Part shown: one piece after another, positions 1 to 64,000 of the stretch
Position numbering within the stretch: the stretch's first letter is position 1
Layout: each line of letters starts with the position of its first letter
NCBI GenBank assembly: GCA_041737355.1
Contig: JBGSRW010000009.1
Coordinates: 5,323-69,322, forward strand
DNA: 64,000 nt
Direction of reading: 5' to 3'
Source: Patescibacteria group bacterium
GTDB lineage: Bacteria > Patescibacteriota > Patescibacteriia > XYB2-FULL-38-15
Notes under the pieces: model-generated
What the model saw: only the letters and a program-made list of their open reading frames with translations
What the model was told of the DNA's origin: nothing
Databases searched by the model: none
Position numbers and translations under genes: made by a program

Positions 1-166
1 TGGGCGGCGCTGGCCTTCGCCGTCCTTTCCATTACTTGGCATATCCGCGACGTTGTTGCCTGATCTGCCGGCAGGAGGATTGAAGCCTCATCCCGTATTT
101 TGTTCCAGAGACAGAGTGCGGGATTTTTTTATTTATTCTTTTGTGGTAAAATAATTAAATAAGTTT

Positions 167-634
167 ATGCTGAAAATTAAGCCATACGAGCAGACAGCGG
201 GATTGAGTTCTTGCGGGCCAGTTTCTTTGAAAATGGTATTGGAGTTTTATGGCATAAAAGAAAGCGAAAAAAAATTAGTAAAAATTTGCGGTAGTACCGC
301 GAGGCGCGGTACGGGGGCGGAAGGATTTAGAAAGGCGGCCCGCTACTTCGGTTTTAAAATTTTTATCAAAGAGTTCACCGATTTTTCCGATATTATTTTT
401 TATTTAAAGAAAAAAATCCCCGTTATTGTTGACTGGTTTTCGACTGACGAAGGGCATTATTCCGTGGCCGTCGGCCTGGATCAAAAATACATTTATCTTG
501 CTGATCCGGAGTTTGGAAAAATAAAAAAAATGCCGAAAGATGTTTTTAGGAGAGTCTGGTTTGATTTTTCAGGCCCGTATTTAAAAAGAAAAGAAGACTT
601 GATATTAAGGAGAGTAATAGTTTTTTATAAATAA
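167..634 (+). CDS. Stand-alone papain-like cysteine peptidase domain, C39 (bacteriocin-processing) family-like
   Basis: Motif Q-x7-SSCGPVSLKMVLEFYG with a downstream His (DEGHYSV) matches the C39 Cys/His arrangement; 155 aa, no ABC domains attached. Confidence 0.55.
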   Translation: MLKIKPYEQTAGLSSCGPVSLKMVLEFYGIKESEKKLVKICGSTARRGTGAEGFRKAARYFGFKIFIKEFTDFSDIIFYLKKKIPVIVDWFSTDEGHYSVAVGLDQKYIYLADPEFGKIKKMPKDVFRRVWFDFSGPYLKRKEDLILRRVIVFYK

Positions 635-666
635 AGGGCTTTGCCCTGTAATAATTTAATAAATTT

Positions 667-978
667 ATGGGAAAAAAAGAATTTTTCAAAGGCGCACTGC
701 TTGGAGCCCTGATTGGGACGGTAGCCGCGCTTTTGACAACCACGAAGACGGGCAAGGAACGCCGCGCTGAATTGAAAAAGATGTCAGACGGCTTGTTTGC
801 GAAGTTGCTTAAAGAAGTAGAAAAAATGAAAGTGATGAGTAAGGAAAAATATGAGGATATGGTTGAAAAAGTCGTTTCCGAGTACGGTAAGAAAAGAAAA
901 ATGGCCGAAAAACAGGTTAAAGAAGTGATGGAAGAACTAAAAGGAAAGTGGACGGATATTCAGAAACACATGAAATAA
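667..978 (+). CDS. YtxH-like small membrane-anchored protein
   Basis: N-terminal TM (GALLGALIGTVAALL) followed by a charged coiled-coil tail; typical YtxH/DUF948 architecture. Confidence 0.5.
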   Translation: MGKKEFFKGALLGALIGTVAALLTTTKTGKERRAELKKMSDGLFAKLLKEVEKMKVMSKEKYEDMVEKVVSEYGKKRKMAEKQVKEVMEELKGKWTDIQKHMK

Positions 979-994
979 TTGGCGTAAATTCCAC

Positions 995-1035
995 AAACCC
1001 CGCCAAAATTTCCGGCGGGGTTTGTATTTTTTTTG
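995..1035 (+). terminator. Intrinsic terminator
   Basis: aaaccccgcc...ggcggggttt hairpin followed by a T-run. Confidence 0.7.
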
Positions 1036-1102
1036 TTTTTGTGATAATTTATTCTGTGCGGACGAGGAATCCGTTTTTTTAGATAAAAAGGAGAGTGTGG
1101 GA

Positions 1103-1711
1103 GTGTCGGGGAAAAATATCCTGAAGGGGCAAGACAGCAGGATCGAACGGGAGCTTGCTGCGGCAATCGTCGCGGGCAAGGCGCCTCAGTTCGAAATCCA
1201 GAGCCGCGATTTTCACAACACCGAATGGTCAATGGGCCAAGCGGGCAGCGGAAGAGGCGAAAGCCGCCTGCAAATGACGGTTTCCCTTTTGCTCGACGGC
1301 CAACCCATCATCCATTCGAGAGAACAGGCCGTGAGGTTCGAGAAGAAAGGCATCGCCTACGAAGGACGGATGGGGTCGGTCGACATCATGGAAACCGTCC
1401 TGCGCGAAGCGATCGTCCAGCGTTGGCCGGAAATCGGTCCGGAACTGGCGAAAATAAAGACAACCAGCTATGCCGTTCATGCTCTCGGCGCAGCTGACGG
1501 CGACAGCCGTGATGAGCACCACGTTCAGGTTCATCTGAGGGTTGTCTTCGAGGGTTGCTCGGAACCGTGCTCGATAAGCCGAGAGGGGGTTGATTCAGTG
1601 GGCGTTACCTTTTCCGCCTTGGTAACCGTTTACCACTGGTTCGTCTGGCGGACTCTCAGGCGTCTGCGCGGCGAGGCGCGGAGAAACAAGGCGCCAAGGC
1701 GCATTGAATAA
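1103..1711 (+). CDS. G+C-rich hypothetical protein (island I1), about 202 aa from GTG
   Basis: Long ORF in a sharply G+C-rich segment; AAGGAGA RBS 8 nt before GTG at 1103; leader carries a small hairpin plus T-run (1059-1080); no recognisable domain. Confidence 0.45.
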   Translation: MSGKNILKGQDSRIERELAAAIVAGKAPQFEIQSRDFHNTEWSMGQAGSGRGESRLQMTVSLLLDGQPIIHSREQAVRFEKKGIAYEGRMGSVDIMETVLREAIVQRWPEIGPELAKIKTTSYAVHALGAADGDSRDEHHVQVHLRVVFEGCSEPCSISREGVDSVGVTFSALVTVYHWFVWRTLRRLRGEARRNKAPRRIE

Positions 1712-1724
1712 CGTCTGTCCACAC

Positions 1725-1758
1725 CGGCTTTAGTCTTCCGACTAGCCGGTTTTATTTT
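1725..1758 (+). terminator. Intrinsic terminator
   Basis: ccggctttagtcttccgactagccgg hairpin followed by ttttatttt. Confidence 0.65.
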
Positions 1759-1882
1759 AGATTGACAAAGCAGTCTAAAAGAGTTATGCTCTAAACAGAA
1801 TTTCGAGCCCAATTATGGCTAAAATTAGGCTTATTTTTAAGATTTCTGAATATAATCTCTTCGGCAGATTTTTATTTTTTTT

Positions 1883-3400
1883 ATGAAGATTTCGGATCGG
1901 GCAAAATACAGAATTTTGGAAATAATTCCCGGCGCTCTCGTCTGGACGACTTTTATTTTGGCGATAGTTTTATCTTTTTTGAAACCGATGTGGGTGATGT
2001 ATTTTGTTATAGTTTTTTGTGTTTACTGGCTTTTCAGGGTTTTCTATTTTGTTTTTTATATGGCAATATCCTGGAGACGTTTTCGGGCCGATATAAAAGT
2101 AAATTGGATGGAAAAATTAAAGGAGCTGGACGGTTGGGACAGTTATTATCATCTTGTCGTTCTTCCGACTTCCAAAGAGCCGATTGAAGTTTTACGTTCG
2201 ACCTTTTCAAGCTTGGTTGCCTCCAATTATCCGTCGGAAAAGATGATGGTAATTTTATCCGGCGAAGAAAGGTTAAAAGAAAATTTTTTGAAAAATAAGG
2301 AAATTATTGAAAAAGAATTCGGCGGAAAATTTTTTAAATTGCTCACGACCATGCATCCAGATAATCTTTTTGGAGAAATCAAGGGCAAGGGCGCCAACGC
2401 CTACTGGGCGGGACTCCGCGCCAAGGAGATGATTGACGAACTTCATATTCCTTACGAAAAAATTATCGTTTCTTATTTTGACAGCGATACCTGCGTTCAT
2501 CCGGAGTATTTTTCATGCCTGGCATACAAATACATAACCAATCCAAAGCGAGAAAGAGCCGCCTTTCAGCCGGTCGCTCTTTACAACAACAATATCTGGG
2601 ATTCGATGGCTATCATGCGGGTAGCGGCTTTCGGCACGACTTTTTGGCTCCTGACCGAACTTGCCAAGCCGGACCGGCTTTTCACCTTTTCTTCCCATAG
2701 TATCGCCTTTAAGGCGCTGGTTGACGTGGATTTTTGGCAAAAAGATATTGTGACGGACGATTCGAGAATTTTTTTACAATGCTTCATCCGCTACGGGGGG
2801 GATTTCGAAGTGGTGCCAATGTATATACCCGTGTCCATGGACACGGTCATGGCCAACACTGCCTGGCGAAGTCTCGTAAATCTTTATAAACAGCAGCGCC
2901 GCTGGGCCTGGGGAGTGGAACATTTTCCATACATGGTCTGGCATTTTAAAAAAAGAACATTAAAAACGAATAGCGGAGAAATAAGTGTTCCCAAAATTCC
3001 TTTCTGGAAAAGAATAAAATATCTGTGGAATCTCGGAGAAGGAATGTATTCCTGGGCTACCGCCCCGATTTTGATGTTTATTCTGAGCAAGTTGCCGCTC
3101 TGGGTTGGGAAGGGCAAAATCGGGACAACGGCTTTCTTTCAGATGACACCGCTTGTTCTCCATTGGCTCCTTACCGCGGCCATGATCGGAATGTTTGTTT
3201 CGGCAATTCTCTTTTTGTTTCTTTTGCCGCCAAGACCGAAAACGCAGCATCCTTTTAAATTTATTATTATGCTTTTGCAGTGGGCTCTTCTGCCGGTTTC
3301 CCTTATTTTGTTCGGTTCAATTCCGGCTATCGAAGCGCAAACCAGGCTGATGCTCGGCAAATATTTGGGATTTTGGGTCACGGAAAAGGCCAGAAAATAA
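1883..3400 (+). CDS. Processive family-2 glycosyltransferase (cellulose/chitin synthase-like) with membrane domains
   Basis: N- and C-terminal TM segments; DSD motif; QQRRW (QxxRW) motif. Confidence 0.7.
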   Translation: MKISDRAKYRILEIIPGALVWTTFILAIVLSFLKPMWVMYFVIVFCVYWLFRVFYFVFYMAISWRRFRADIKVNWMEKLKELDGWDSYYHLVVLPTSKEPIEVLRSTFSSLVASNYPSEKMMVILSGEERLKENFLKNKEIIEKEFGGKFFKLLTTMHPDNLFGEIKGKGANAYWAGLRAKEMIDELHIPYEKIIVSYFDSDTCVHPEYFSCLAYKYITNPKRERAAFQPVALYNNNIWDSMAIMRVAAFGTTFWLLTELAKPDRLFTFSSHSIAFKALVDVDFWQKDIVTDDSRIFLQCFIRYGGDFEVVPMYIPVSMDTVMANTAWRSLVNLYKQQRRWAWGVEHFPYMVWHFKKRTLKTNSGEISVPKIPFWKRIKYLWNLGEGMYSWATAPILMFILSKLPLWVGKGKIGTTAFFQMTPLVLHWLLTAAMIGMFVSAILFLFLLPPRPKTQHPFKFIIMLLQWALLPVSLILFGSIPAIEAQTRLMLGKYLGFWVTEKARK

Positions 3401-4439: not shown

Positions 4440-5240
4440 ATGGATTTGTCGATAATTATTTTAAACTACAGGGCGCGCGGACTTCTCAAGGAATGCCTTA
4501 AGGGAATAAAAATGGCGCAGCCGAAGATTAATTTTGAAATTATTGTCGTGGATAATGCCTCTGGCGACGGAACGCCGGCCATGATGGAGGAGGGTTTTCC
4601 CGACATCCGTTTTATAGCTTCAGATAAAAATATCGGATACGCCAGGGGAAATAATCTTGGTATCAAGGAGGCGAAGGGCCGTTATGTTATGATTATGAAT
4701 CCGGATATAGTTGTATTCGAGGGGGTTTTTGAAAAATTAGTTGAATTTATGGACGGCCGGCCGGATGTCGGAATTATCGGACCGAAGCTTTTGAATCCGG
4801 ATAAATCTTTGCAGTATTCCTGCTATCGTTTTCCGGATTTTTGGGAGCCGGTTTACCGCCGGACACCGATCGGGAAATTCGGTTTTGCAAAAAAGAAACT
4901 GGATCTTTACTTCATGAAGGATTTTGATCACGCTTCGGTCAGGGAAGTCGATTGGCTTTTGGGTGGATGTTTCCTAATCCGCCGCAAGGCACTGGATGAA
5001 GTCGGGTTGCTCGACGAGAGATATTTTGCTTATTTTGACGATGTTGATTTATGCCGGAGTATGTGGGAGAAAAAATGGAAAGTGGTTTATTATCCTCTCG
5101 TTTCGGTTATTCATTTTCATCGGCGCGAATCGGCCGAGGGAAAATGGTGGAGCGGAATTTTTAAAAAAGTGACAAGAATACACCTCATGAGCTGGCTTAA
5201 ATATTTCGGAAAATGGAGAAAGAGTGAAAAAAATATTTAA
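4440..5240 (+). CDS. Family-2 glycosyltransferase
   Basis: IIILNYR...VDNASGDGT GT-A N-terminus; DDVD motif. Confidence 0.7.
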   Translation: MDLSIIILNYRARGLLKECLKGIKMAQPKINFEIIVVDNASGDGTPAMMEEGFPDIRFIASDKNIGYARGNNLGIKEAKGRYVMIMNPDIVVFEGVFEKLVEFMDGRPDVGIIGPKLLNPDKSLQYSCYRFPDFWEPVYRRTPIGKFGFAKKKLDLYFMKDFDHASVREVDWLLGGCFLIRRKALDEVGLLDERYFAYFDDVDLCRSMWEKKWKVVYYPLVSVIHFHRRESAEGKWWSGIFKKVTRIHLMSWLKYFGKWRKSEKNI

Positions 5241-5263
5241 AATAAATCAGTAGTTTTTTATTT

Positions 5264-7261
5264 ATGAAATTCAGGGGGACAAATTTTTTGGATATTCTTC
5301 ATCCCGAAAGGGCCAAAAAAAGAAGAGTTTTTCTTTTCGTCAGGATTATTTTATATGTTTTTGCTTCGGTCGTGGCGGCAAGTTTGATTTTTTCCGCAAT
5401 TTATTTTTGGACTGTCCGGGACGCTTATAATCTGGCCGATTCGGGAAAGCGCAATCTGGAATTGGCGGTCAGCCGGGCGGAAGCTTTGGATTTTGGCAAT
5501 GCAAACTTTTATTTGTCCGAGGCAAAAAATAATTTTGAAGAGGCCCGGGCCAAGTTTTCCAATCTTAGATTCCTGAAAATTTTTCCCTGGGTTGGCGACC
5601 AATATGGAGCAATAGAAAATTTGATAGAAACCGGCGTTGAAACGTCGTCGGCTTTGCAAGATGTGGTCGGGGTAGTTGGAGACATAGTTAATATCGCCGG
5701 TGAAGCGGAGACGACGCTTGGGGGAGTTCCCGGCATAAATAAAGAAACCAGTTTCGCGGAACTTTCCCCCGAAAAGAAGAGGGAAATCCTTCAAAAATTA
5801 TTTGATTCGGCTCCTCGCCTTGCTTCAGCTGAAATAAAAATAGATCAAGCCCTCGCCTCGCTCAATGAGGTTAAAGAAGGAAGGGTAATCGGCCAAATTT
5901 TTCAAGTCGTGGCTAAAGTGAGGGAAACTCTCCTGAAACTGAAGAACGCGGTTCAAAAAGCCATTCCGGCCGCGGAAATTTTGCCGCAACTCGCCGGCTA
6001 CCCCGAGGGTAAAACCTATCTTTTTCTTCTCCAAAACAGCGACGAAATCAGGCCAACCGGCGGATTTATTGGGACTTACGGAATTGTTAAAGCCAAAGAC
6101 GGAGAAATAAAGACATTTGAAACCGATAACATCTACGCTCTGGACGGCCCGGCGTCTAATTTTTTGAAGATAGACCCCCCGGCTCCGATAAAAAAATATC
6201 TGAAAGTCGGGTCGTGGTTTATGCGCGACTCCAATTGGTCTCCGGATTTTCCGACTTCGGCGGCCAAGGCGGAATGGTTTTACGAAGCCGAGCGCGGAGA
6301 GGAAAAGAAGATTGACGCGGTGGTAGCCGTAACGCCGGCCCTGATTGAAAATATTTTGAGACAAATCGGCAACATAGAAATGGACGGAGCGACTTTTACT
6401 CCAGAAAATCTGATGGATGTTCTCCAATACAAGGTGGAAAAAGAATATTACGAAAAGGGGATTCCTGAATGGCAGCGTAAGGATATAGTCGGAAAATTGG
6501 GAGATAAAATTTTTGAACGATTAGCCAATTTACCGTCGTCGAGATGGTCTGATTTGATAAATGTTGTCAGCGAGGCCCTTGTTCAAAAACACCTTCTTTT
6601 ATGGGGAAAATCCGCGGGGCTGCAGTCGATTATCGCGCGTGAAGGGTGGGATGGAGCGGTCCGCAACACCGACGGAGATTATCTTATAGTCGTGGACGCA
6701 AACCTTGCCAGTTTAAAAACGGACAGCGTAATGGATAAAAAAATATTTTATTCTTTTACAGCCGGGGAGAACGGTGAGGTCCGGGCAAAAGCGGAGATAG
6801 TTTATAAAAACAAAGGCACGTTTACGTGGAAAACTACCCGTTACAGAACTTACACAAGAATATATGTTCCGGCCGGAAGCGTTTTAGTGAAAGGAGCGGG
6901 CATGATGGAAAACGATAAAGTTTCCGATCCGTCGCGCCGGGCAGGCAAAGTTGATGTCGGCGAAGAGCTGGGGAAAACATATTTTGGCGCCTTTATCTCC
7001 ATTGAGCCCGGCGAGGAGAGAACCCTTAGTTTTGAATATGTTTTGCCGGAAAAAATAAAAAATCAGATCCAGGGAGGTTCGTATAAATTGTTTTTCCAAA
7101 AGCAATCGGGCACGACCGGTCACCCCTTGACTTTAAACCTTGATTTTGGTAAAAAGATTAAGCAAGCCGCGCCCGCCGAAGAGTCTAAAGATTGGGGCGA
7201 CGTGGTCTATAAATTACAGACCGACCTAAGAACGGACAAGGAAATAGAAATTAGATTTTAG
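5264..7261 (+). CDS. Large membrane-anchored extracytoplasmic hypothetical protein
   Basis: Single N-terminal TM then a roughly 600-aa soluble region; no confident family call (possibly DUF4012-like). Confidence 0.4.
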   Translation: MKFRGTNFLDILHPERAKKRRVFLFVRIILYVFASVVAASLIFSAIYFWTVRDAYNLADSGKRNLELAVSRAEALDFGNANFYLSEAKNNFEEARAKFSNLRFLKIFPWVGDQYGAIENLIETGVETSSALQDVVGVVGDIVNIAGEAETTLGGVPGINKETSFAELSPEKKREILQKLFDSAPRLASAEIKIDQALASLNEVKEGRVIGQIFQVVAKVRETLLKLKNAVQKAIPAAEILPQLAGYPEGKTYLFLLQNSDEIRPTGGFIGTYGIVKAKDGEIKTFETDNIYALDGPASNFLKIDPPAPIKKYLKVGSWFMRDSNWSPDFPTSAAKAEWFYEAERGEEKKIDAVVAVTPALIENILRQIGNIEMDGATFTPENLMDVLQYKVEKEYYEKGIPEWQRKDIVGKLGDKIFERLANLPSSRWSDLINVVSEALVQKHLLLWGKSAGLQSIIAREGWDGAVRNTDGDYLIVVDANLASLKTDSVMDKKIFYSFTAGENGEVRAKAEIVYKNKGTFTWKTTRYRTYTRIYVPAGSVLVKGAGMMENDKVSDPSRRAGKVDVGEELGKTYFGAFISIEPGEERTLSFEYVLPEKIKNQIQGGSYKLFFQKQSGTTGHPLTLNLDFGKKIKQAAPAEESKDWGDVVYKLQTDLRTDKEIEIRF

Positions 7262-7272
7262 CCAAATAACAT

Positions 7273-8280
7273 ATGTTAAGAAAAAAGATCGGGATCGATC
7301 TTGGCACAACCAACGTCCTAGTGCACGTTCCCAAAAGGGGAATTATTATTAACGAACCTTCAGTGGTTGCGCTTTCTGTTTCCGACCGAAAAATTTTAGC
7401 GGTCGGACATGAGGCGAAGGAAATGCTCGGAAGAACACCAGAAACCATCGTTGCCCGCCGTCCGTTGAAGGACGGAGTAATTGCCGATTACAAGACAACC
7501 GAGACGATGCTCCGCTATTTTATTAACAAAGCTTTGGGGGGCGTCCGGCTTTTTCGTCCGGAAGTAATGGTTGCCGTTCCGGCTGGAATTACTTCAACTG
7601 AAAAAAGAGCCGTAATCGACGCGACGATTGCTGCCGGAGCCAAGGCGGCTTACGTAATTAAAGAACCGGTTGTCGCGGCAATTGGTGCGAATATTCCGAT
7701 TGGCAGCGCTTCCGGTCATATGATTATTGATATCGGCGGGGGAACCTCAGAAATGGCGGTTATTTCTTTGGGCGGGATCGTTTCTTCCGCTTCGGTGAGA
7801 ATCGGCGGGAACAAACTTGATACTGCAATTGCTGAATTTATCCGCCGGAAATACGGTCTGGCAATCGGTGAGCGGACCGCCGAACAAATCAAAATAGAAA
7901 TCGGTTCGGCAATGTATATGGAAGAAAAATTGAAAATGGAGGTTCGGGGACGCGACATGATCAGCGGACTTCCGCGGACAATTCTTGTTACCTCCGACGA
8001 CGTGACCGAGGCGGTAACGAACGAACTTGAGGGAATGATAGCCGCGGTCAAGGAAGTTTTATACAATACTCCGCCCGAACTTTCCGCGGACGTTATTGAT
8101 AAAGGAATAGTTCTTTCCGGCGGTACGGCCCTGCTCCGTAACCTCGATCAGCTGATTGTTCAGGCAACAGGCATTCCGACTTACGTGGCGAATGAGCCGC
8201 TTCTTTGCGTAGCCAAAGGCACGGGTATCGCGCTTGAAAATTTGGAATCTTACAAAAGAAGCATTTTGGCGACAAAATAA
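7273..8280 (+). CDS. mreB: Rod shape-determining actin homologue MreB
   Basis: IGIDLGTTN phosphate-1 motif, DIGGGTSE, full-length actin-fold similarity. Confidence 0.9.
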   Translation: MLRKKIGIDLGTTNVLVHVPKRGIIINEPSVVALSVSDRKILAVGHEAKEMLGRTPETIVARRPLKDGVIADYKTTETMLRYFINKALGGVRLFRPEVMVAVPAGITSTEKRAVIDATIAAGAKAAYVIKEPVVAAIGANIPIGSASGHMIIDIGGGTSEMAVISLGGIVSSASVRIGGNKLDTAIAEFIRRKYGLAIGERTAEQIKIEIGSAMYMEEKLKMEVRGRDMISGLPRTILVTSDDVTEAVTNELEGMIAAVKEVLYNTPPELSADVIDKGIVLSGGTALLRNLDQLIVQATGIPTYVANEPLLCVAKGTGIALENLESYKRSILATK

Positions 8281-8295: not shown

Positions 8296-9429
8296 ATGCT
8301 TATCGGTATTGACGCCTCACGCGCCAATAAATCGGAGAAGACGGGAACCGAATGGTATTCCTACCATTTGATTCAAGAATTAAAAAAAATTGCTGATCTA
8401 AAAGATCGGTTTATTTTATATTCGAGGGAAAAATTGCGGGGGGATCTCGGGAAACTTTCGGAAAATTGGCAGAGCAAAATTCTTTCCTGGCGGCCAAAGA
8501 AATTTTGGACGCAAATAAGATTATCCTGGGAAATGCGCCGCCGGCCGCCGGAAGTTCTTTTTGTCCCGGCACATACTCTTCCCTTTATTCATCCCCAAAA
8601 AACGGTTACAACCTGCCACGACGTAGCTTTTTTGCGTTTGCCACAAGTTTATGACTGGCCAGCCTTGAAATATCATGAATTAGCCTTAAAATTCGCCCTG
8701 CGCCACGCGACTAAAATCATTACCGTTTCGGAATTTACGAAGAGCGAAATTTTGGAATTTTTTAAAATTTCTCCCGAGCGGATCGCAGTCGTGCCGAACG
8801 GTTATGACAGCAGCCGGTATAAAATAATTGACGATAAAGAGGCAATAAAAAAAGTTTTGGAAAAATGCAAAATCAGCCAGCCGTATATTTTATATGTCGG
8901 CCGCTTGGAACTGAAAAAGAATACGCCGGGTTTGTTGGAGGCGTTTAAAATTTTAAAGAAAAATTTAAAGTCCTCGGCTGAAAATTCTCAATTAAAATTG
9001 GTACTGGCCGGCCAGCCGGGATTTGGTTTTGAAAAAGTTGCCAAAGCAATTGTGGACAATGATTTGCACGATCAAATCATTATGCCGGGCTGGGTGGAAC
9101 CGGATGATTTGCCGTATTTGATGAACGGTGCGAACGCTTTCGTCTTTCCATCTTTCTACGAAGGGTTTGGCATTCCGATTTTGGAAGCTATGGCTTCGGG
9201 CACGCCGGTTGTTTGCTCAGGTATTCCGGCGCTCCGCGAGGTAGCAGGGGAGGCGGCCTATTTTGTCGATCCCTACGAACCGAAAAATATTGCCGAAGGC
9301 ATAGAGCGGGTTCTTGGGGATGAACATCTCCGAGAAGATTTGAGAATCCGTGGGTTGGCCAAAGCGCAGGATTTCAGTTGGGATAGATGCGCCAGAGAGA
9401 CGTGGAAAGTATTGGAAAATTTGAGATAG
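8296..9429 (+). CDS. GT-B fold family-4 (group 1) glycosyltransferase
   Basis: C-terminal EGFGIPILEAMASGTPVV motif typical of the GT4 family. Confidence 0.75.
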   Translation: MLIGIDASRANKSEKTGTEWYSYHLIQELKKIADLKDRFILYSREKLRGDLGKLSENWQSKILSWRPKKFWTQIRLSWEMRRRPPEVLFVPAHTLPFIHPQKTVTTCHDVAFLRLPQVYDWPALKYHELALKFALRHATKIITVSEFTKSEILEFFKISPERIAVVPNGYDSSRYKIIDDKEAIKKVLEKCKISQPYILYVGRLELKKNTPGLLEAFKILKKNLKSSAENSQLKLVLAGQPGFGFEKVAKAIVDNDLHDQIIMPGWVEPDDLPYLMNGANAFVFPSFYEGFGIPILEAMASGTPVVCSGIPALREVAGEAAYFVDPYEPKNIAEGIERVLGDEHLREDLRIRGLAKAQDFSWDRCARETWKVLENLR

Positions 9430-9498
9430 AAAAATCGAAGTAAAAGGTAATTTTTTTATTATCTCGCTTAGCGGGATTTTTATTTTTAGAAATAAAAA

Positions 9499-9550
9499 AG
9501 AAGGCCCGTCCGCAAGTAGGATTTAGAGTCCTATTCGCAGGCAGGCCTTT
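9499..9550 (-). terminator. Intrinsic terminator for minus-strand island I2
   Basis: Imperfect 20+ bp hairpin (aaggcc...ggcctt) followed on the minus strand by cttttttatttc. Confidence 0.55.
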
Positions 9551-9601
9551 GGGGAAAAAGAACGGGTGGGTTACGAACCGGTGGGCCCGATTGGCGGGAA
9601 A

Positions 9602-9808
9602 CTACGATGAGAGGTCGTCGGCCGGGTCCTCGAGCTGCCCGCCCGTGGCGAGCAGCCGGACGTGGTCGGCGAAGGTGTCCAGGTCGGCCGCGCGATCGCG
9701 GTCCGGACCGGAACGCCAGACGCCGTCATCCTGGACCATGTCGGCCGGGTCGGCGCCTTCGACCAGCGCTTCGTAGCGCCGGTCCATCTCACTCAGCACG
9801 TTTCTCAC
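9602..9808 (-). CDS. G+C-rich small acidic hypothetical protein (island I2), about 68 aa from GTG
   Basis: GGAGGTG RBS 5 nt before GTG; D/E-rich product VRNVLSEMDRRYEALVEGADPADM...; the ORF track gives a longer 101-aa version from an upstream GTG. Confidence 0.4.
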   Translation of the reverse strand: MRNVLSEMDRRYEALVEGADPADMVQDDGVWRSGPDRDRAADLDTFADHVRLLATGGQLEDPADDLSS

Positions 9809-10171
9809 TTTTCCACCTCCATCCCCTGATGGTCGCACTTCCTCCTTTTGGAATTTGGCGGCCATCCGGCTGGGCAAAATATTTTTGCTCAATCGGTCGG
9901 TCGTCACTTAATAATTTTAATCCTTCTTTCGGGAAAAAAGAAGGGGTTTCAAGACTTGCGTCCATCCACCCCCCCCTGCAGTTCAGTGCGCGCCCCGCGC
10001 TGCGGTTCTCAGAATTTTTTGTTCCTCCTCTTTCTTGCTGTGAGTTGCTGACTTGTCTCATCGCCGGCCTCATCTGCCGGCGTGCGCTTGCGGGGCCTCC
10101 CGCACAAAGTGCGGTACTCCGGTCCTTGGCCGGTTCTAGGCTGTAACCGGATTCCCCAGGTTCGGTGCTTT

Positions 10172-10201
10172 AAATTTATCATATTTTCTTAATTTTGTCA
10201 A
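10172..10201 (-). promoter_or_regulatory. Minus-strand sigma70-type promoter driving island I2 (TTGACAAAA-N14-TGATAAATT)
   Basis: Reverse complement reads cTTGACAAAAttaagaaaatatgaTAAATT; the 18-nt core is near-identical to the promoter at 11565-11593. Confidence 0.55.
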
Positions 10202-10306
10202 GAGTTGTTGACAGAATAAATAAAAATAGCCCTTACAAAAGGGCTTTATTTTATTAAAAGTTTATGCTATGATAACAAAATAATTAATCTTAAATTGTGC
10301 ATAAAT

Positions 10307-11065
10307 ATGCTCGAGAAAGAATTACAAAAATTAGGTCTGTCCGATAAAGAGGCTAAAGTTTATCTGTCCTCAATGGAACTTGGCCCTTCGCCCGTGCAAA
10401 ATATTGCCGGTAAAGCCGGAGTCAATCGGGCTACGACTTACGTGATGATCGAATCTTTAATTGGCAGGGGATTGATGAGCTCTTTTGAAAAAGGAAAGAA
10501 AAGATTTTTTACTTCAGGCTCTCCTGATCATCTTTTGGCCTTGCTCCACAAAGAGGAAGTTGAAATTAAAGAAAAAACCCGACAATTTGAAGAAATTTTG
10601 CCGGAATTGAAAACCCTTTTCGCCGCGGCCGAAGAAAAACCAAGATTAAGATTCTTCGAAGGCGCGGAAGGGTTAAGAGCGATTCAGGATGATATTTTAA
10701 AATCGAAATATGAGAGTTTTGAGGAAGTTGTGGCGCTGGATGAGTTTTACAAAATTTTTCCTCCCGACGACAAAGACCACAGAAAAAAATTGTCGGATAA
10801 GACAAAAGACATGTCTTTCAGGCTTATTTATACGACAGCCAAAGGGAAATCCCTATCCTCAAAAGAGGGAAGAAGAGAAAGGCGCTACATCCCGCCGGAA
10901 AAATTTCCTTTTTCAACCGATTTGGTTATCTATGGGCAAAAGGTAGCAATCGGAGTCTGCAAGGGTAAAATTATTGGAGTTATTATCGAGAGTAAGGAAA
11001 TCAGTGAAACCTTGAGGGCAATTTTCAACCTGGCCTGGGATGCGGCGGAAAAATACCAGAAATAA
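10307..11065 (+). CDS. TrmB-family transcriptional regulator
   Basis: N-terminal wHTH LSDKEAKVYLSSMELGPSPVQNIAGKAGVNRATTYVMIESLIGRGL typical of the TrmB family. Confidence 0.6.
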   Translation: MLEKELQKLGLSDKEAKVYLSSMELGPSPVQNIAGKAGVNRATTYVMIESLIGRGLMSSFEKGKKRFFTSGSPDHLLALLHKEEVEIKEKTRQFEEILPELKTLFAAAEEKPRLRFFEGAEGLRAIQDDILKSKYESFEEVVALDEFYKIFPPDDKDHRKKLSDKTKDMSFRLIYTTAKGKSLSSKEGRRERRYIPPEKFPFSTDLVIYGQKVAIGVCKGKIIGVIIESKEISETLRAIFNLAWDAAEKYQK

Positions 11066-11137
11066 AAAAATAGCCCGGTAATATGGTGCTGCGTCTCTGA
11101 TCTTGTAGCCAAGATGCAGACACCTTATTCCCGGGCT
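11062..11137. terminator. Bidirectional terminator-like hairpin
   Basis: agcccgg ... ccgggct outer stem with an inner hairpin, flanked by an A-run on the left and a T-containing stretch on the right. Confidence 0.5.
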
Positions 11138-11556
11138 TTGCGCCAGGGTTGAAGTCGGCTCGTGCCGGTTTATCTTCCCAGACGCTGGTTCTTCACTTCG
11201 ATCCGATTGGACCGACGACTTCCGCTCGTGCGGCAGGAGAAGGAGAGTCGTTACCCACCTTCACCACAGTTCGCCGTCCGTCGCTTCTGAAACCATCTTG
11301 AACCACTTCCGTGAGCTCCCCAAAACATGACGTTCATACCTCCTTCGCGGAGGACTTATCGGAAAGCAGCAAGCCAAGACCGTTAGGCCTCAAAGCTCTG
11401 CCGCGAAAATCCCGGGGCGATCACGAAATTGTGACCAAGCACCAAAGGATCCTCCTTTCTAGCGGCGTAAGCTTAAAAGCCCGCGAGTCGGTCGAGAAGT
11501 CGAGCTGCCATCCAAAAAAGTCTCCGCAATCTGATGCGGCGGGACACCCCGCCTTT
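11138..11556 (-). ncRNA. Candidate long structured non-coding RNA (island I3)
   Basis: Roughly 470 nt, G+C-rich, minus-strand unit between promoter (11565-11593) and terminator (11062-11137); no minus-strand ORF of 60 aa or more; many local helices; weak, unconvincing resemblance to RNase P CR-I/CR-II strings. Confidence 0.35.
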
Positions 11557-11564
11557 GATGGTTT

Positions 11565-11593: not shown

Positions 11594-11632
11594 ATAGTTA
11601 ATAACAAAAGGCGGATTTTTAAAAGAAAAAGT

Positions 11633-19418: not shown

Positions 19419-19422
19419 TTGT

Positions 19423-37087: not shown

Positions 37088-37095
37088 ATACGGGG

Positions 37096-52875: not shown

Positions 52876-52935
52876 AGAATAATAAGTAAAGTTTCCAAAC
52901 CGGCTGAAAAGCCGGTTTTTTGTTAGTATAAAAGG

Positions 52936-52964
52936 TTGACAAATTTTTTAGTTTTTGTTATAAA
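52936..52964 (+). promoter_or_regulatory. Promoter (TTGACAAA-17-TATAAA) that initiates at the tRNA-like element
   Basis: gTTGACAaattttttagtttttgttaTAAAAAc; predicted start site about 6-8 nt before 52980. Confidence 0.5.
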
Positions 52965-52979
52965 AACAACATGTAGACG

Positions 52980-53134
52980 GGGGCTGTAGCTCAAAGTCTG
53001 AAACAGCGTTTGGTAATGGCTTAGGTCATGACCAGCGCCGTAGACGAAGCAGAGCATTTGGGGGAAGGCGCGTGAGAGTAACTACTGGCGCCCGAACCAG
53101 AAGGTTGGAGGTTCAAGCCCTCCCAGCCCCGCCA
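52980..53134 (+). ncRNA. 155-nt tRNA-like element: perfect 7-bp acceptor stem, canonical T-arm and CCA, with about 80 extra structured nt where the D and anticodon arms should be
   Basis: 5' GGGGCTG pairs with 3' CAGCCCC-G-CCA; T-arm GGAGGTTCAAGCCCTCC; the interior contains hairpins (gctgt..acagc, ggtcatgacc, ctgg..ccag) but no standard cloverleaf. Confidence 0.5.
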
Positions 53135-53759
53135 GGTCTTAACAGCGAAGGGTTTTGCCCCGCTTTTGGCTAGAGCACCGCGAGGAGAAAGCGGAGTGTC
53201 GATGCCAAAAGAAAAGATGCTGGCGGGTTAAGCCGCTGGGGAGAGAGTCCGCTCCCGCTGTTAAGACCTCCTTCTCGGTTGCGGTTAAAAAGCGGAAGAC
53301 CTCCGCTCGGCCGCAACCAGATGGCTCGTGGCTAAGCCCAAGGGGGCTAAAATGGGCCGGTGGGTTTTTCTCGAGCCACCGAGAGAACCCCGGAAGCTTC
53401 CGCGAGCCAAGCTCGCGTTAGCATAAAGTTGCGATCGGTGAAAGCCTTGCACTGGCTACGGTTCTGGCTACCGTGCCGATCGCGACCTGCACTGTTCCTG
53501 GGGGCGGAGCTCGCCCCACATCCCTCCGATTGGGCCAGAACAGTGCAGTCTTCCAAGCCCGGCGGCGGTTCTTTTCGCTGAACCGTGAGATCGCCGCCGG
53601 GCTCCACTAAACGTACTTCCAAGTGCGGAAACCCCGCGCGAGGAAGTCGTGATGTGTGTGTTGGATTGGCCTCCCCCACACGCTTGCCGGACGAACGACA
53701 GTTGGTCGAAAGACCGATAAGTAGCCGAAAGGTGAATGTTGTTTCGTCCGGCATTTTTT
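53135..53759 (+). ncRNA. Candidate large ornate structured non-coding RNA, about 620 nt, co-transcribed immediately 3' of the tRNA-like element
   Basis: G+C-rich; no credible ORF in either strand; many long-range helices with perfect reverse complements (ggtcttaacagcg/cgctgttaagacc, gttgcgg/ccgcaac, gcgatcgg/ccgatcgc, ctgcactgttc/gaacagtgcag, cccggcggcg/cgccgccggg, ccggacgaa/ttcgtccgg), ending in a U-run. Confidence 0.5.
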
Positions 53760-53843
53760 GTCTCTGACCTTGACAAAATCACCTTTTAGAGTTAGTATTA
53801 GCCATAGGGTAGATTTAACTTTTGAATCTAAATAAAACAAAAT

Positions 53844-56152: not shown

Positions 56153-56218
56153 GAAATAAAAAAACGCGCCACCGATAAGGATCTCGAATGACGCGTGATG
56201 AGCAAGGAAGGCGTCTCG

Positions 56219-56572
56219 CTAGAAGTAACCCACACTAGCCCGTACGAGCGTGTACAAGTCTGCCTCCGGGCAGGGGTTTACGATTTCGTTCTCGGGCGGA
56301 TCCTTGGCAATACGCTTGAGAAAAACGACGTTGCAGTCTGCGTCCGCAATTTCCATCTTCCAAGAGGACGGCGTGAAACGCGCCACCCCCGACGGTTCCA
56401 ACGCGCGACTCCAACGACGCCAAGAAATCATGAACGCTTCGTCGGGTTCTACCCAACGCGCGGGTCTGCGTAGGAGATTGCCAACGACGTTTTGGCCGTC
56501 GCTGCGGTGCTCAATTATGATCCACCCGCCCAGATCCATGCGCCGAAGTCGGTCAACGTCATTCTTGTTCAT
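56219..56572 (-). CDS. G+C-rich hypothetical protein (island I6), 117 aa, inserted antisense inside the heat-shock operon
   Basis: Strong RBS GGGAGG 7 nt before ATG; upstream minus-strand promoter TTGACT-17-TTAGAT (alternative -10 TATTAG at 15-nt spacing) with an extended-10 TG; no known domain. Confidence 0.45.
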   Translation of the reverse strand: MNKNDVDRLRRMDLGGWIIIEHRSDGQNVVGNLLRRPARWVEPDEAFMISWRRWSRALEPSGVARFTPSSWKMEIADADCNVVFLKRIAKDPPENEIVNPCPEADLYTLVRASVGYF

Positions 56573-56714
56573 GTCGCTACCTCCCTCTTTCTGTTTGCGA
56601 CGCGTTAATCTAATATCATTTAATCAAAAAAGTCAAGAGTAATTGTTTATAGATAGATTGTTCCGTGCATGCGGCGCGGAACAGAAATTTACAAATAATT
56701 AAGTATAAAAAATT

Positions 56715-61069: not shown

Positions 61070-61098
61070 TTGACAAAATGGCTAAAACGGATTTAAGT
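61070..61098 (+). promoter_or_regulatory. Promoter of island I7 (TTGACAAAA-17-TTAAGT) followed by a leader hairpin with U-run
   Basis: cccTTGACAaaatggctaaaacggatTTAAGT; leader hairpin cttgtctcggagtgagacagg then tttttgtt at 61108-61136. Confidence 0.45.
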
Positions 61099-61179
61099 AT
61101 ATGGAGGCTTGTCTCGGAGTGAGACAGGTTTTTGTTCGAAAGCAGCTTCTCGGCCAAAAGCCGGGAAGGGAGGGAAAAA

Positions 61180-63603
61180 ATGAGGCTGTTCGTTCTTTTC
61201 ATTCTGGTACTTGGGGCGACCCAGGCATCGGAGGCCTTGGCGAGCGAGAGCTCACCTATTGGCGAAGCAGGGCAGGCCTACGAGGTCAGGCCCCGCGACC
61301 GGCTCGAGCGGGTGGCGGCGCATTTCGGCGTGACGATCGGAGAAATCATCTCCGCCAATCCGCCGCGCGCTTTCATCCGCGAATGCGTTGGCCAGCGCGA
61401 ACTTACGCTCCGTAACGGCGAGACGATCACTGTCTGCCGGCGGGTTCATTACGGACTTATCGCCGGAAAGACGCTCATCATCCCGGTTCCACGCTTGATT
61501 GTCGAATCGGAAAATGTCCGACTTGACGCGGAAAACACGGCTCTTGAGGCCGAACGCGACCAGGCCGAGAGAGAGAGCGATTTGTTGAAGCAAGAGCGCG
61601 ACGCTTTGCGCGCCGAACGCGATGAACTGAAGCGGACGGCCGAAGCAGCGCTTCGCGAGAAGGCCGAGATCCAGGGCCGCTACGACGAGCTGAAGCAAGC
61701 TTCTGCCGTGAGGCCGGAAAATAATGTGAACTCTCCGGCCGAAAGCAAGAGTTCCGCGCCTTCCGCGATGTATAATCGCGAGGCGTTCTTCTTCGTCATT
61801 CTGGCGATCATGGGATGCTCCCTGATTGTCATCGCACACAGGCATTTTACCCGTCCCGGATTGAAACTGAAGCGATCGGTCGAAGAACTCCGGCGCGAAC
61901 GGGCGAATTTTGAAATCGTGCGTTCCGCCTTGGCGGAAGAAGGCAAGGAACTTGCCGAGCGGCGGCGCCGGCTCGACGCCGAGGATCTGGAAATTCGCAC
62001 GCAGAGGTCGACGCTTGAGCGCGACCAGGAGAGTTTGCGGACTCAGCGCGATGAACTCGGCAAGTGGGAAGAGAGCTTGAAGGCAAGGGCAGCCGCCCCT
62101 GTGTCCGAGAAGCCGAAGACAGTCACTGCAATCGGCGTCCCGCCGATTTTCTCGCCCGTTCCGACTGGCGCGGAAAAAGCCAAGACCGAAGCGGGACTGC
62201 TGCAGGTCATGGTTGCCCGCGGGCGCCAACTCCTCGAAGAGGATTTCCGGACGCTTGCCGGACGCGAAGCAGCTTGCACGGCCCGTGAAAAGGCCATTGA
62301 GCGTCGGGTTGCGGCGCTTGATTCATTGCGGCAGGCCCTTGAAGACCGGGAGAAGAACCTTACCACAAAAGAACACGGGGTCGAAGAGTTGCGCAGGACC
62401 TTCAGCAGCGGGAAAGCCCGTTGCGACCTAACGGACATCGCCCAAACTGAACGGGAAGAGAATCTCGTTAAGGGTTTTGCCGATTTGACGGCTCAGAGAG
62501 ACCGTTTGGACAAGGAATTCGGCCAAAGGCAAATTGACCTTGACCGGCGTGCCACAGAGATCGACGGCAAGGTCCGGATGTACGACGAGGACATCGCTCC
62601 GGCGATCAAAAAGGCCCGGGAAGACCTCGCCGCCCGTGAGGCCGCTTTCGCCGAACGGGAGCGTGGGCTTGCGGAAACGGAAAGAAGCAACACGGCCCGT
62701 GCCGAAAAGCTTAGCGAAGACGAGCGCGCTTACGAACGCCGGATGCAGGAACTGAAGCAGACAGGCGACGACCTCGATCTGCGCGCTGAAAAGTTGGGCG
62801 AAGGCGAGCAGAAACTCAGCGAAGAACAGCTTGAGCTGAAGAACAACCGCGACGCCTTTGCCAACGAAGTCGACGCGGCTAAGGGTATTCTTACCCGGGC
62901 CAAGCGCAAGAAGGAAATCGTCGCCACGCTCGAAGAACGCGAAGCCGAAGTCGCTCGGCGCGAACGAGAATGTGAAGCGCGCGAAGGCACGCTTCAGTCC
63001 TGGTCGGAGCGGCTTAGCGAACGGGAACGAAAGGTTGTTCTTGCCGAGCTTCCGACAAGTGGGATACCCCACAGGCCGACACTGGCGCCGGCGTTTCCGC
63101 CTCTTCCGTTGCCCGGAGATATTACCCCTGGCACAAGCGCCGACGACGACAATCCTACGGTCACTTTCCAACCGCCGACGGACGAGGAAATTGATCCGAG
63201 GGCCGCGACCCACATTGAAATGAACCCCGGCCCGGCAATGGTAGTTGATTCTGTTGATATTGAGGGCGAAAGGGTAATCGGAACTTCCGAAGAACCGTCC
63301 GCCCCCGCAGCGGACTTGACGGTGCCGGACGGCTCGCTAACCTGCCGGCGCGAGGAGGACGGTCAGGAAGTTGATCTTGCCTCCGCTGAAGCACATATCG
63401 GAATCTGCCGGTCGCCGGCCGGAGCAGAGTCACCGCTCCGCGAAACCGGACCGCACATTCCGGTAGCGGCAGAGCCAATGCTGCACTCGGAAAGTTCTTT
63501 TTGGTGCAGCCTCTGCAAACGGGATATCCCTATGGATGACATGGATGCCCACCAGAAGCTGCATCAAGAGCAGGAAAACCACGGCCCGCTTGGCCAGGGA
63601 TAA
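61180..63603 (+). CDS. G+C-rich LysM-domain, membrane-spanning, long coiled-coil protein with C-terminal C2H2-type zinc-finger-like motif (island I7)
   Basis: RBS GGGAGGG; signal peptide; LysM (YEVRPRDRLERVAAHFGVTIGEIISANP); TM (FFFVILAIMGCSLIVIAH); about 400 aa of E/R/A-rich coiled coil; Pro-rich spacer; CSLCKRDIPMDDMDAHQKLH (C-x2-C-x12-H-x3-H). Confidence 0.5.
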   Translation: MRLFVLFILVLGATQASEALASESSPIGEAGQAYEVRPRDRLERVAAHFGVTIGEIISANPPRAFIRECVGQRELTLRNGETITVCRRVHYGLIAGKTLIIPVPRLIVESENVRLDAENTALEAERDQAERESDLLKQERDALRAERDELKRTAEAALREKAEIQGRYDELKQASAVRPENNVNSPAESKSSAPSAMYNREAFFFVILAIMGCSLIVIAHRHFTRPGLKLKRSVEELRRERANFEIVRSALAEEGKELAERRRRLDAEDLEIRTQRSTLERDQESLRTQRDELGKWEESLKARAAAPVSEKPKTVTAIGVPPIFSPVPTGAEKAKTEAGLLQVMVARGRQLLEEDFRTLAGREAACTAREKAIERRVAALDSLRQALEDREKNLTTKEHGVEELRRTFSSGKARCDLTDIAQTEREENLVKGFADLTAQRDRLDKEFGQRQIDLDRRATEIDGKVRMYDEDIAPAIKKAREDLAAREAAFAERERGLAETERSNTARAEKLSEDERAYERRMQELKQTGDDLDLRAEKLGEGEQKLSEEQLELKNNRDAFANEVDAAKGILTRAKRKKEIVATLEEREAEVARRERECEAREGTLQSWSERLSERERKVVLAELPTSGIPHRPTLAPAFPPLPLPGDITPGTSADDDNPTVTFQPPTDEEIDPRAATHIEMNPGPAMVVDSVDIEGERVIGTSEEPSAPAADLTVPDGSLTCRREEDGQEVDLASAEAHIGICRSPAGAESPLRETGPHIPVAAEPMLHSESSFWCSLCKRDIPMDDMDAHQKLHQEQENHGPLGQG

Positions 63604-63627
63604 GTGAAAAGCAGGAGGAAGCACAAT

Positions 63628-63662
63628 GCCGGACAATAAGCTTATTGTCCGGCGTTTTTTTA
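63628..63662 (+). terminator. Intrinsic terminator
   Basis: gccggacaataagcttattgtccggc followed by gtttttttt. Confidence 0.8.
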
Positions 63663-63864
63663 TTTTGCCTTTATGCCGTAGGCGGAAAAGTGGGAAGTAT
63701 ATTGTGAGCGAGCGGTAGCGAGCGAACTCTGCTCAAATGAGAATTCTAAAGGAGGATACTCCTTTAGTCGGAGGGCGGAATATAATAATCATCCGCCTGA
63801 CGATACTTTTTGTACTAATTTTTTTATGCTATACTATATTAATATCAAAACATTTCGCTTTATG

Positions 63865-64000
63865 AATATGCGAATGCGATTTTTTCTTATTTGTCTGGCC
63901 GTAATTCTTTTTAGTACGGCCGGTGGTTTAGGTTTGCGTTTTGCCTTGGCTGCCTGGCAGGAACCGACCGCGGCTCCGCCGGACAATAATGTTCCCGGAC
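63865..64000 (+). CDS. Secreted hypothetical protein (5' partial, runs off the window)
   Basis: MNMRMRFFLICLAVILFSTAGG signal peptide; G+C-rich from about 63900. Confidence 0.35.

Follow-up and report, generated by a model that had tools for sequence, protein, structure and literature searches.

G+C-rich islands between housekeeping genes of a Patescibacteria chromosome and their probably heterogeneous origins

Composition and boundaries of nine islands

The stretch of DNA considered here (the window) comprises 64 kb out of a 70,185-bp contig from a metagenome-assembled genome of the Patescibacteria (candidate phyla radiation, CPR), and it carries nine short G+C-rich segments, referred to as islands 1 to 9, which are scattered among its housekeeping genes. 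The DnaK protein of the window clusters at 90% with proteins that, where named, are from Patescibacteria, Paceibacterota and Falkowbacteria. For comparison we fetched ~180 loci from other assemblies, which are given L numbers (L001, L095, etc.), and those syntenic with the window were found via cluster members, exact-protein look-ups, one DnaK-anchored scan of GTDB and one SPFH-anchored scan of metagenomes.

In 400-nt windows the G+C content of the background lies at ~0.38–0.50, whereas the nine segments peak at 0.55–0.62, in agreement with a preliminary description of this DNA that had listed nine sharply G+C-rich segments in an AT-richer background. No comparable segment occurs in the rest of the window, where only mild bumps (0.52–0.54) are seen in mreB, dnaJ and a glycosidase gene. 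The background genes (n = 56) have a mean G+C of 0.441 (sd 0.033) and a mean G+C at third codon positions (GC3) of 0.478 (sd 0.049), with GC1/GC2/GC3 at 0.50/0.35/0.48. The coding sequences (CDSs) of the islands depart from this codon usage, with G+C of 0.53–0.70 and GC3 of 0.59–0.87, and have normal period-3 structure, a pattern clear enough to mark them as real genes. GC3 is highest in the CDSs of islands 3 (0.87; 68 aa) and 5 (0.86), followed by islands 2 (0.67, G+C 0.58), 8 (0.67), 9 (0.66, G+C 0.60) and 6 (0.59). Since the GC2 of island 5 (0.34) is at background level, its G+C excess is due to synonymous codon choice. All island homologues that were found are likewise G+C-rich relative to their own locus. 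An artefact in which chimeric joins with reads of a G+C-rich organism created the contrast is hardly conceivable, as nothing but the sharpness of the boundaries favors it, promoter and terminator sequences bridge these boundaries, and the same islands recur between the same flanking genes in independent JGI, ENA, NCBI and Logan assemblies, which rules out an assembly or binning chimera.

The island edges are abrupt and, both in our reading of the sequence and in scans, coincide with promoter-like and terminator-like sequences; units start at TTGACAAA, and the TTGACAAAA of the next unit or gene comes after. It had been proposed that each island has its own near-consensus promoter and intrinsic terminator. 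Such sequences do bound every island, although many of them score weakly. In a simple promoter scan 10/12 was reached by islands 3 and 4 only, with island 8 at 9/12, and islands 5 and 6 combine a perfect −35 and a TG with poor −10 hexamers. A simple terminator scan matched islands 1, 6 and 9, the remaining terminators being long-loop hairpins followed by T-runs that were recognized by eye in the sequence only. The extended architecture said to be shared by four island promoters, TTGACAAAA-N14-TG-N-TAAnnT, is indeed present at 10201 (minus strand), 11594 (minus strand), 36468 and 37096. The same promoter type also precedes non-island genes at 1762, 19966, 53770 and 54493, so that four of the eight sites matching TTGACA plus TAnnnT lie at islands and four at ordinary genes. 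It is thus not specific to islands, and the TTGACAAAA type would represent the ordinary strong promoter of the lineage and not an island hallmark. From these boundaries we infer that the islands are independent one-gene or one-RNA transcription units, each with a host-type sigma-70 promoter and a hairpin terminator.

Island contents and their sites in relatives

As had been described, the islands sit between housekeeping genes; the slots include hsp20|dnaK, yidC|SPFH (SPFH-domain gene) and CBS|PYNP. Comparison with syntenic loci revealed empty slots for islands 5 and 6 (in L095) and for island 7 (in L102, L119 and L110) and swapped cargo for island 8, which points to lateral gain or exchange at these sites.

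Islands 5 (36468–37090, plus strand) and 6 (37096–37948, plus strand) have a common promoter (36468–36496 and 37096–37124) and a common 77-nt leader that is 92% identical between them (within 36500–36607 and ~37128–37230), followed by different CDSs. The CDS of island 5 (36608–36970) encodes 120 aa when counted from the ATG that is preceded by a Shine-Dalgarno sequence (SD), and not 131 aa as first given, and that of island 6 (37231–37839) encodes 202 aa in the public gene call in place of 211 aa. Island 5 ends with a structured 3′ untranslated region (3′UTR) and a terminator reaching to ~37090, and island 6 with a terminator at 37905–37948. AlphaFold2 models of the two proteins are confident (pLDDT 93.8 for island 5 and 88.1 for island 6), which supports that these proteins are real, and predict a C-type-lectin (CLec) fold for island 5 and a C-type-lectin/FGE-like fold for island 6. 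In a profile comparison their C-terminal halves align (E 1.6e-4, probability 50%), and we take them as remote paralogues, which explains the common leader. A covariance scan of 36250–38000 against Rfam (E up to 1) gave chance-level matches only.

The CBS|PYNP slot that holds the two islands spans 1590 nt in the window and shrinks to a 66-nt spacer in L095, where the flanks are 90–97% identical; in L092 it holds an MmeI-type (type IIL) restriction-modification enzyme of 902 aa (4993–7701). Directly 3′ of the CBS-domain gene, at 36336–36430, lies a ~95-nt candidate for a long-hairpin RNA (GGTGAGAGGCAATCTACTGC...GTAGTGGATTGTCTCTCGCC) that comes with a −10-like sequence of its own and matches nothing in Rfam (E up to 1); L095 and L092 have nearly identical copies, and the terminator behind it differs from genome to genome.

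Homologues of the island-5 protein (45–58% identical) come from metagenomes only, one of them named Patescibacteria, and their sites differ, with L101 adjoining gyrB and L182 adjoining a PadR gene. The best accessible island-6 homologue (L183) stands behind a CHASE2 cyclase gene. GC3 is 0.86 in the L101 homologue (neighboring genes 0.36–0.39), 0.55–0.60 in L182 (neighbors ~0.37) and 0.90 in L183 (neighbors ~0.40). Third positions hold A 0.06, C 0.49, G 0.37 and T 0.08 in island 5 and the L101 homologue alike, and 0.04, 0.54, 0.36 and 0.07, respectively, in the L183 gene, with island 3 close too; in the island-5/6 family A and T are equally depleted along the whole gene. Both L101 and L183 retain a TTGACA promoter and a homologous leader, whose hairpin stems differ yet pair (CAGGA..UCCUG in the window, GCUGG..CCAGC in L101 and UGGGAA..UUCCCA in L183), and L101 and the window also have the 5′ motif TTTTGGC in common. 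That promoter and still-pairing leader are kept suggests that in this family the whole unit, from promoter and leader through CDS to terminator, moves together, and the earlier statement that islands “adopted host promoters” is therefore unproven, since here promoter and leader would travel between genomes with the gene. A regular expression for the leader, run over the ~180 fetched loci (which represent few neighborhoods), found L101 and L183 only, and was too strict to recover the two copies of the window itself.

In the homologues the C-terminal ~30 residues mix conserved W/G/L positions with highly variable ones, and in the CLec-fold genes the nucleotides on both sides of the stop codon are conserved as well (CGYCGCAAGTAG), with a structured 3′UTR behind them. 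In both families this 3′UTR has CTTGG/CTCGG/CCTAGG pentamers every ~8–12 nt (window 36971–37090; L182 ~2893–3000; L183 ~5553–5650), which could be a candidate protein-binding or recombination-related element. A ~65-nt palindromic repeat of three hairpins (TGTCATCCCCGA..TCGGGGATCCAG..CTGGATTCCCGC..GCGGGAATGACA) occurs in L101 at 47–110, 5637–5705 and 6540–6605, two of these copies flanking the island-5-like cassette, and in other CPR loci (L006 ~5060, L090 ~11991 and L178 ~8298). As a general island boundary it was rejected, because it is missing from the window.

Island 7 (52936–53760, plus strand) consists of a promoter of the form TTGACA-N17-TATAAA (52936–52964), a tRNA-like element (52980–53131), a structured RNA of ~620 nt and a terminator (~53690–53760). 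The tRNA-like element reaches 38.2 bits with the Rfam tRNA model (cut-off 29), with insertions of 56 nt in the D loop and 35 nt in the anticodon loop, and is not called by ARAGORN. The island folds far more stably than shuffled controls (minimum free energy (MFE) z = −8.55). Its yidC|SPFH slot is empty (54–134 nt) in L102, L119 and L110, relatives with an SPFH protein identity of 90–96%, and holds 0.8–1.8 kb of G+C-rich non-coding sequence in eight relatives. These eight versions share the motifs AAGCTTCCGCGAG..CTCGCGTT, AAAGTTGCG and GTACTTCC..GCGCGAGGAAGTCG and the terminator, with spacing that ranges between 242 and 759 nt; compensatory change is seen at a few base pairs, and nhmmer found homologues in close relatives only. 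A genuine tRNA-Glu(CUC) stands at the place of the tRNA-like element in L104 (~2226–2299) and L088 (1–58), and there is none in L090. In L104 and L088 this tRNA is under the same predicted promoter as the large G+C-rich RNA. The window has a separate tRNA-Glu(CTC) at 49202–49279 beside the degenerate, expanded tRNA-like element, which shows homology to the tRNA of the relatives in its T-arm and immediately downstream. Island 7 probably represents a recently gained or exchanged RNA, large, modular and structured, whose transcript would also include a tRNA-derived element. With cmscan, 52900–53800 gave the tRNA match and chance-level matches only (E up to 1), and known RNAs (rRNA, RNase P, tmRNA, SRP and introns) were excluded as a cause of the G+C peaks, as tRNAs alone pass the Rfam gathering thresholds.

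Island 8 (56160–56636, minus strand) has a promoter at 56636–56607, a 5′UTR with SD, a CDS of 117 aa (56572–56219) and a terminator at ~56203–56160, and its protein is an orphan in a singleton cluster. In L088 the hsp20|dnaK slot is occupied by a G+C-rich minus-strand unit with a matching frame, of which the promoter, 5′UTR, SD and ATG are ~80% and the terminator ~90% identical to island 8, and which encloses a 94-aa open reading frame (ORF) unrelated to the island-8 protein (BLASTP E = 22). Homology between the two stops at the ATG and resumes ~25 nt past the stop codon; this is the one swapped frame that was found. The slot measures 57–150 nt in many distant CPR, and 254–1918 nt with differing genes in close relatives, with variability seen in L006, L090, L108, L109 and L110 (254 nt in L109 and L110).

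In contrast to these units, islands 1, 2, 3, 4 and 9 (five of the nine) are conserved in place in relatives, and by the refuting condition given with the preliminary description they count as ordinary, if odd, conserved genes. Islands 1–4 occupy the same sites, G+C-rich, in two other species, and both the islands and their flanking regions show ~75–80% nucleotide identity between the related species. Island 1 (1–130, plus strand), originally listed as a truncated island at 1–135, is better described as the 3′ end of a CDP-alcohol phosphatidyltransferase CDS (1–63, 20 codons plus stop) with a hairpin terminator (90–130, scan match at 90–124). Its identity is inferred from homology to a PF01066 gene in L001 (4313–4882), with the end of which (4820–4882; G+C 0.57 there) it aligns. 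Island 2 (1038–1760, plus strand) has an extended −10 (TGTGATAAT, ~1040–1050), a CDS at 1103–1711 and a terminator at ~1722–1756; its 202-aa protein has a hydrophobic C-terminal helix, nine homologues and no match in Pfam, PADLOC or PHROG, and is found G+C-rich at the same YtxH|X|GT2 site in L001, L002 and L004. Island 9 (61070–63662, plus strand; promoter ~61070–61100, CDS 61180–63603, terminator 63625–63662 with a scan match) encodes an 807-aa protein that had been described as a LysM/coiled-coil/zinc-finger protein. It has a signal peptide, a long coiled coil and a transmembrane segment; the LysM match is weak and under the Pfam cut-off, and the tail is best called a Cys/His-containing C-terminus. 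Its homologues, also G+C-rich (0.60–0.62), follow dnaK-dnaJ in four loci (L086, L087, L088 and L090), with protein identity of 27–54% across relatives versus >90% for DnaK. A concatenated query with several island proteins gave relatives of island 9 only and missed even the exact island-8 protein, so its lack of homologues for islands 3 and 8 is no evidence. Judged by their positions and homologues, islands 1, 2 and 9 appear to be older, genus-conserved, fast-evolving G+C-rich protein genes.

Islands 3 and 4, which have a common promoter, appear to be transcripts that are conserved and combine a long structured leader with a small ORF. Island 3 (9499–10201, minus strand) combines a promoter at 10201–10173 (10/12 plus TG), a ~360-nt leader (10166–9806), the 68-aa CDS (9805–9602) and a terminator (~9545–9499), and is present at the same site in L096 and L100, where the ORF counts 62–85 aa and the C-terminus and terminator are conserved. 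An additional gene of the 23S_rRNA_IVP family stands between the GT4 gene and island 3 in L100 (3026–3421), which makes the GT4|island 3 slot variable as well. Island 4 (11072–11594, minus strand) has a promoter at 11594–11566, a ~230-nt leader, an ORF at 11337–11251, a variable 3′ part and a terminator at ~11140–11066. It had been regarded as non-coding, which holds for its long structured leader and not for the conserved ORF of 24–28 codons that follows the leader (28 aa in the window copy, MNVMFWGAHGSGSRWFQKRRTANCGEGG), in which indels are multiples of 3 and the C-terminus CG.EGG* is kept in two other species. When aligned with these species the leader is conserved more strongly than the flanking genes, and the island folds well below shuffled sequence (MFE z = −5.02). 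A covariance scan of 9400–11700 (E up to 1) found no Rfam family for either island. One further similarity links the CDSs of islands 3 (9721–9746, minus strand) and 5 (36745–36770), where 26 nt in coding orientation (..GGCCAGGATGACGGCG..), encoding QDDG, are 85% identical; the match may be fortuitous or may point to a shared ancestry.

Origin of the G+C excess

Three genomes were aligned over window positions 1–20,500, and substitutions were polarized by parsimony. Background third positions gave a GC-to-AT versus AT-to-GC count of 1120:1193 (0.94:1), which places their GC3 of 0.48 at equilibrium. The corresponding count for island-2 third positions was 52:26, where ~2.2:1 is expected under the background regime from a GC3 of 0.67, and this is consistent with the slow amelioration of an old import. 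Islands 3 (87:69, ratio 1.26) and 4 (58:42, ratio 1.38), which are mostly non-coding, were nearer to balance, as expected if paired G–C positions are under selection.

The islands had been proposed to be either one family of acquired cassettes or one class of RNA/protein modules. Each of these alternatives fits a subset, and the unifying idea finds no support, as the contents are unrelated apart from the fold and leader of islands 5 and 6 and the promoter of islands 3 and 4. On balance, it is probable that the islands form a heterogeneous set of recent small-protein cassettes, older foreign-looking genes with laterally imported codon usage, and structured RNAs, with no single family among them. 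The units would occupy variable intergenic slots between housekeeping genes of a CPR chromosome of ~44% G+C, with islands 5 and 6, 7 and 8 as accessory units recently gained or exchanged at slots that vary among close relatives. The non-coding G+C excess would be selected RNA secondary structure; the claim that long structured RNAs set the G+C content is plausible for islands 4 and 7 and the island-3 leader, but not for the coding islands. There, the excess would be foreign codon usage (GC3 up to 0.87) that arrived by lateral transfer and is eroding slowly. The donors would most probably be GC-richer Patescibacteria, because every recovered homologue context for islands 2, 5, 6 and 9 looks like CPR DNA, the fetched loci include CPR genomes with 0.59–0.67 G+C, and a published report, which also describes competence genes, traces most of the detectable transfers into Patescibacteria to other Patescibacteria (PMC12455944). 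Movement would occur by homologous recombination via conserved flanks or frames after DNA uptake, without a dedicated recombinase. In line with the earlier description, we found no integrase, transposase or flanking repeat in the window or in the Pfam annotations of the syntenic relatives, nor an attC-like site, target duplication, reverse transcriptase or common terminal repeat. A phage, plasmid or defence origin was unsupported in our searches, where tblastn against phage records (all island proteins) and plasmid records (island 6 only) gave no match, PADLOC gave none, PHROG gave a single coiled-coil chance match (island 9) and IMG/VR had no match to the island DNA motifs.

Several observations weigh against this heterogeneous, partly imported origin. 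For the proteins of islands 2, 3, 5, 6, 8 and 9 no homologue could be placed in a G+C-rich genome and no donor was identified. Covariation support for the island RNAs is thin (3–8 sequences), and the substitution counts, being small, parsimony-based and near saturation, are indicative only. The exact replacement from ATG to 3′UTR at island 8 is unlike what simple flank recombination predicts. Finally, the island-5/6 families combine an AT-rich promoter and leader with a CDS of GC3 ~0.9 in three genomes at 42–57% amino acid identity, a pattern that maintenance in place explains more readily than a series of new imports would, the alternative being repeated recent export from a G+C-rich reservoir.

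Maintenance of high G+C in place, either by selection on these particular transcripts (for mRNA stability or structure, or for escape from a nuclease or silencer that targets AU) or by GC-biased gene conversion in segments with unusually frequent recombination between strains, is accordingly a tentative alternative, though a rather unlikely one. The contrast would then be a lasting feature of the units instead of the fading mark of an import. Homologues of islands 5 and 6 are GC outliers in all four genomes concerned, and at the identities just given the third positions of island 5, L101 and L183 are nearly alike (A 0.04–0.06, C 0.49–0.54, G 0.36–0.37, T 0.07–0.08), with the AT-rich promoter and leader accompanying the gene. 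Maintenance would also fit the G+C richness of each homologue of each island in its own locus, the near-equilibrium of islands 3 and 4 at ~0.60 G+C and the coincidence of islands with recombining or turnover slots. It sits less well with the third positions of island 2, which shed GC at about the unconstrained rate, and with the GC3 values of 0.55–0.60 in L182 and of 0.59 in island 6 against 0.90 in L183, which look like stages of decay. Highly expressed genes such as dnaK and mreB have ordinary GC3, so expression level as such is no driver.

Still less likely is an “expression-slot” system without an integrase, in which conserved frames are reloaded with unrelated G+C-rich cargo (small orphan proteins, CLec-fold binders under a dedicated leader RNA, and a new class of large modular RNA fused to a tRNA) and the G+C content is actively maintained. 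If true, the accessory genome of CPR would have, throughout the lineage, a separate compartment made of these units that follows a logic of its own in transfer and regulation. We regard as improbable one dedicated cassette system, with fixed promoter/UTR and terminator frames that are loaded by an unrecognized integron-like or RNA-intermediate mechanism whose enzyme is encoded elsewhere. The replacement at island 8, unexplained by flank recombination, keeps this hypothesis alive: the frame is conserved around unrelated ORFs, with homology that breaks at the ATG and resumes ~25 nt past the stop. It also accommodates the single promoter and 77-nt leader before different CDSs in islands 5 and 6, the common promoter of islands 3 and 4, the start of units at TTGACAAA followed by the next TTGACAAAA, and the fact that G+C-rich segments begin and end at predicted transcript boundaries. 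Against it stand the absence from the window of all the enzyme genes and sites searched for above, the single swapped frame, the stable inheritance of 5/9 islands in place and the unrelated contents; moreover, the island-5/6 leader is explained by remote paralogy, and TTGACAAAA is the usual −35 region of the lineage.

It is similarly doubtful that islands 5 and 6, and these two only, are variable-protein targets of a diversity-generating retroelement (DGR), with the reverse transcriptase and template repeat outside the window, and with their composition and 3′ ends reflecting the needs of retrohoming. DGRs with CLec-fold targets are reportedly frequent in CPR, and the fixed W/G/L residues among highly variable positions in the C-terminal ~30 residues, the conservation across the stop (CGYCGCAAGTAG) and the structured 3′UTR would suit such targets. 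However, a search of the 64-kb window and of 12.5 kb surrounding the L101 homologue gave no template-like repeat of either 3′ end, the checked ORFs of the window and the Pfam annotations available for syntenic relatives showed no reverse transcriptase, and at third positions A and T are equally depleted gene-wide, instead of adenine alone in the C-terminal tract.

Comparison with known systems and other features of the window

The closest known concept appears to be the phage moron, an independent transcription unit between conserved phage genes with distinct composition and horizontal spread (PMC3594210), and by analogy the islands might be called moron-like chromosomal units. Like morons, they hold one gene with its own predicted promoter and terminator (on consensus-level evidence), have atypical composition, horizontal spread and mostly unknown or accessory cargo, and in the case of islands 5 and 6, 7 and 8 stand between genes that are adjacent in relatives, islands 1–4 and 9 being present in all relatives examined. 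Unlike morons, they reside among housekeeping genes of a cellular chromosome and not in a prophage, have no phage-database matches, include RNAs, and are in about half of the cases stably inherited across species.

Genomic islands do occur in Patescibacteria, according to the report cited above (PMC12455944). The islands resemble variation hotspots or genomic islets in their atypical composition and in that one slot has differing content in close relatives, including the MmeI-type gene. They differ from classical genomic islands in being single-gene units of 0.5–0.9 kb with no integrase and no direct repeats, and in that a tRNA link exists in island 7 only, where the tRNA-like element lies within the 5′ end of the transcript. 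Integron cassettes differ as well, as the islands have no shared imperfect inverted repeat or attC, no integrase among window neighbors or syntenic relatives, and a promoter for each unit.

Among RNAs, Klein, Misulovin and Eddy reportedly used compositional screens in 2002 to find G+C-rich non-coding RNAs in AT-richer genomes. What islands 4 and 7 and the leader of island 3 share with these is that they are non-coding, G+C-rich, strongly folding and conserved, but their background is only moderately AT-rich (44% G+C) with no sign of thermophily, and they match no Rfam family. GOLLD and ROOL are large accessory bacterial RNAs, often located beside tRNAs or in prophages. Island 7 is comparable in its size of ~0.8 kb (0.8–1.8 kb in relatives), G+C richness, modularity, tRNA link and presence or absence among relatives, although with cmscan (E up to 1) it has no Rfam-model match to GOLLD, ROOL, OLE, HEARO, RNase P, tmRNA or group II intron. 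Finally, the proteins of islands 5 and 6 are small, with a predicted CLec fold and a variable C-terminal stretch, like the DGR variable proteins Mtd and TvpA (PMC5006420, PMC8144416). Unlike for these, neither a reverse transcriptase nor a template repeat (sought in the window and near the L101 homologue) was found, and there is no adenine-specific signature.

In the very small genomes of CPR most lineage-specific genes lack an explanation, and a screen for composition marks this accessory layer almost gene by gene, while exposing strain-variable slots inside otherwise rigid housekeeping operons. The items it picks out include CLec-fold proteins, for which ligand binding is probable from the modeled fold (surfaces of the host or of phages being possible targets), an envelope protein with LysM that evolves fast (island 9, with the sub-threshold match noted above) and at least three RNA candidates without an Rfam family, one of them tRNA-linked, 0.8–1.8 kb long and coming and going among close relatives. 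If the G+C excess is imported, it could serve to time gene flow among Patescibacteria that differ in G+C and to tell its direction, and if it is maintained, it would imply an unknown selective or recombinational force on composition. The new leads are the hsp20|dnaK frame, the leader of the CLec-fold cassettes, the tRNA-linked RNA and the leader-plus-ORF transcripts of islands 3 and 4; the first of these, with its swapped cargo, is an entry point to accessory-gene renewal in episymbionts without obvious mobile-element machinery.

Two further features of the window lie outside the islands. A 93-nt direct repeat (98% identical) at 19331–19423 and 20347–20439 forms the 3′ ends of a TPR gene and of a 103-aa ORF, and brackets ~1 kb with two small ORFs (19423–19776 and 20120–20431) that adjoin a tRNA-Thr/Tyr/Thr cluster. 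In the syntenic L096 no such ORFs are called between the TPR and L33 genes, and the region 19331–20439 has the appearance of an insertion accompanied by the duplication of a gene end. In addition, the N-terminal half of a histidine kinase of 485 aa (49828–51285) consists of degenerate 21/42/63-nt repeats (49858–50530) that encode KLAVTAKEKES-like heptad units, with an AT skew of up to 0.51 in the repeat region.

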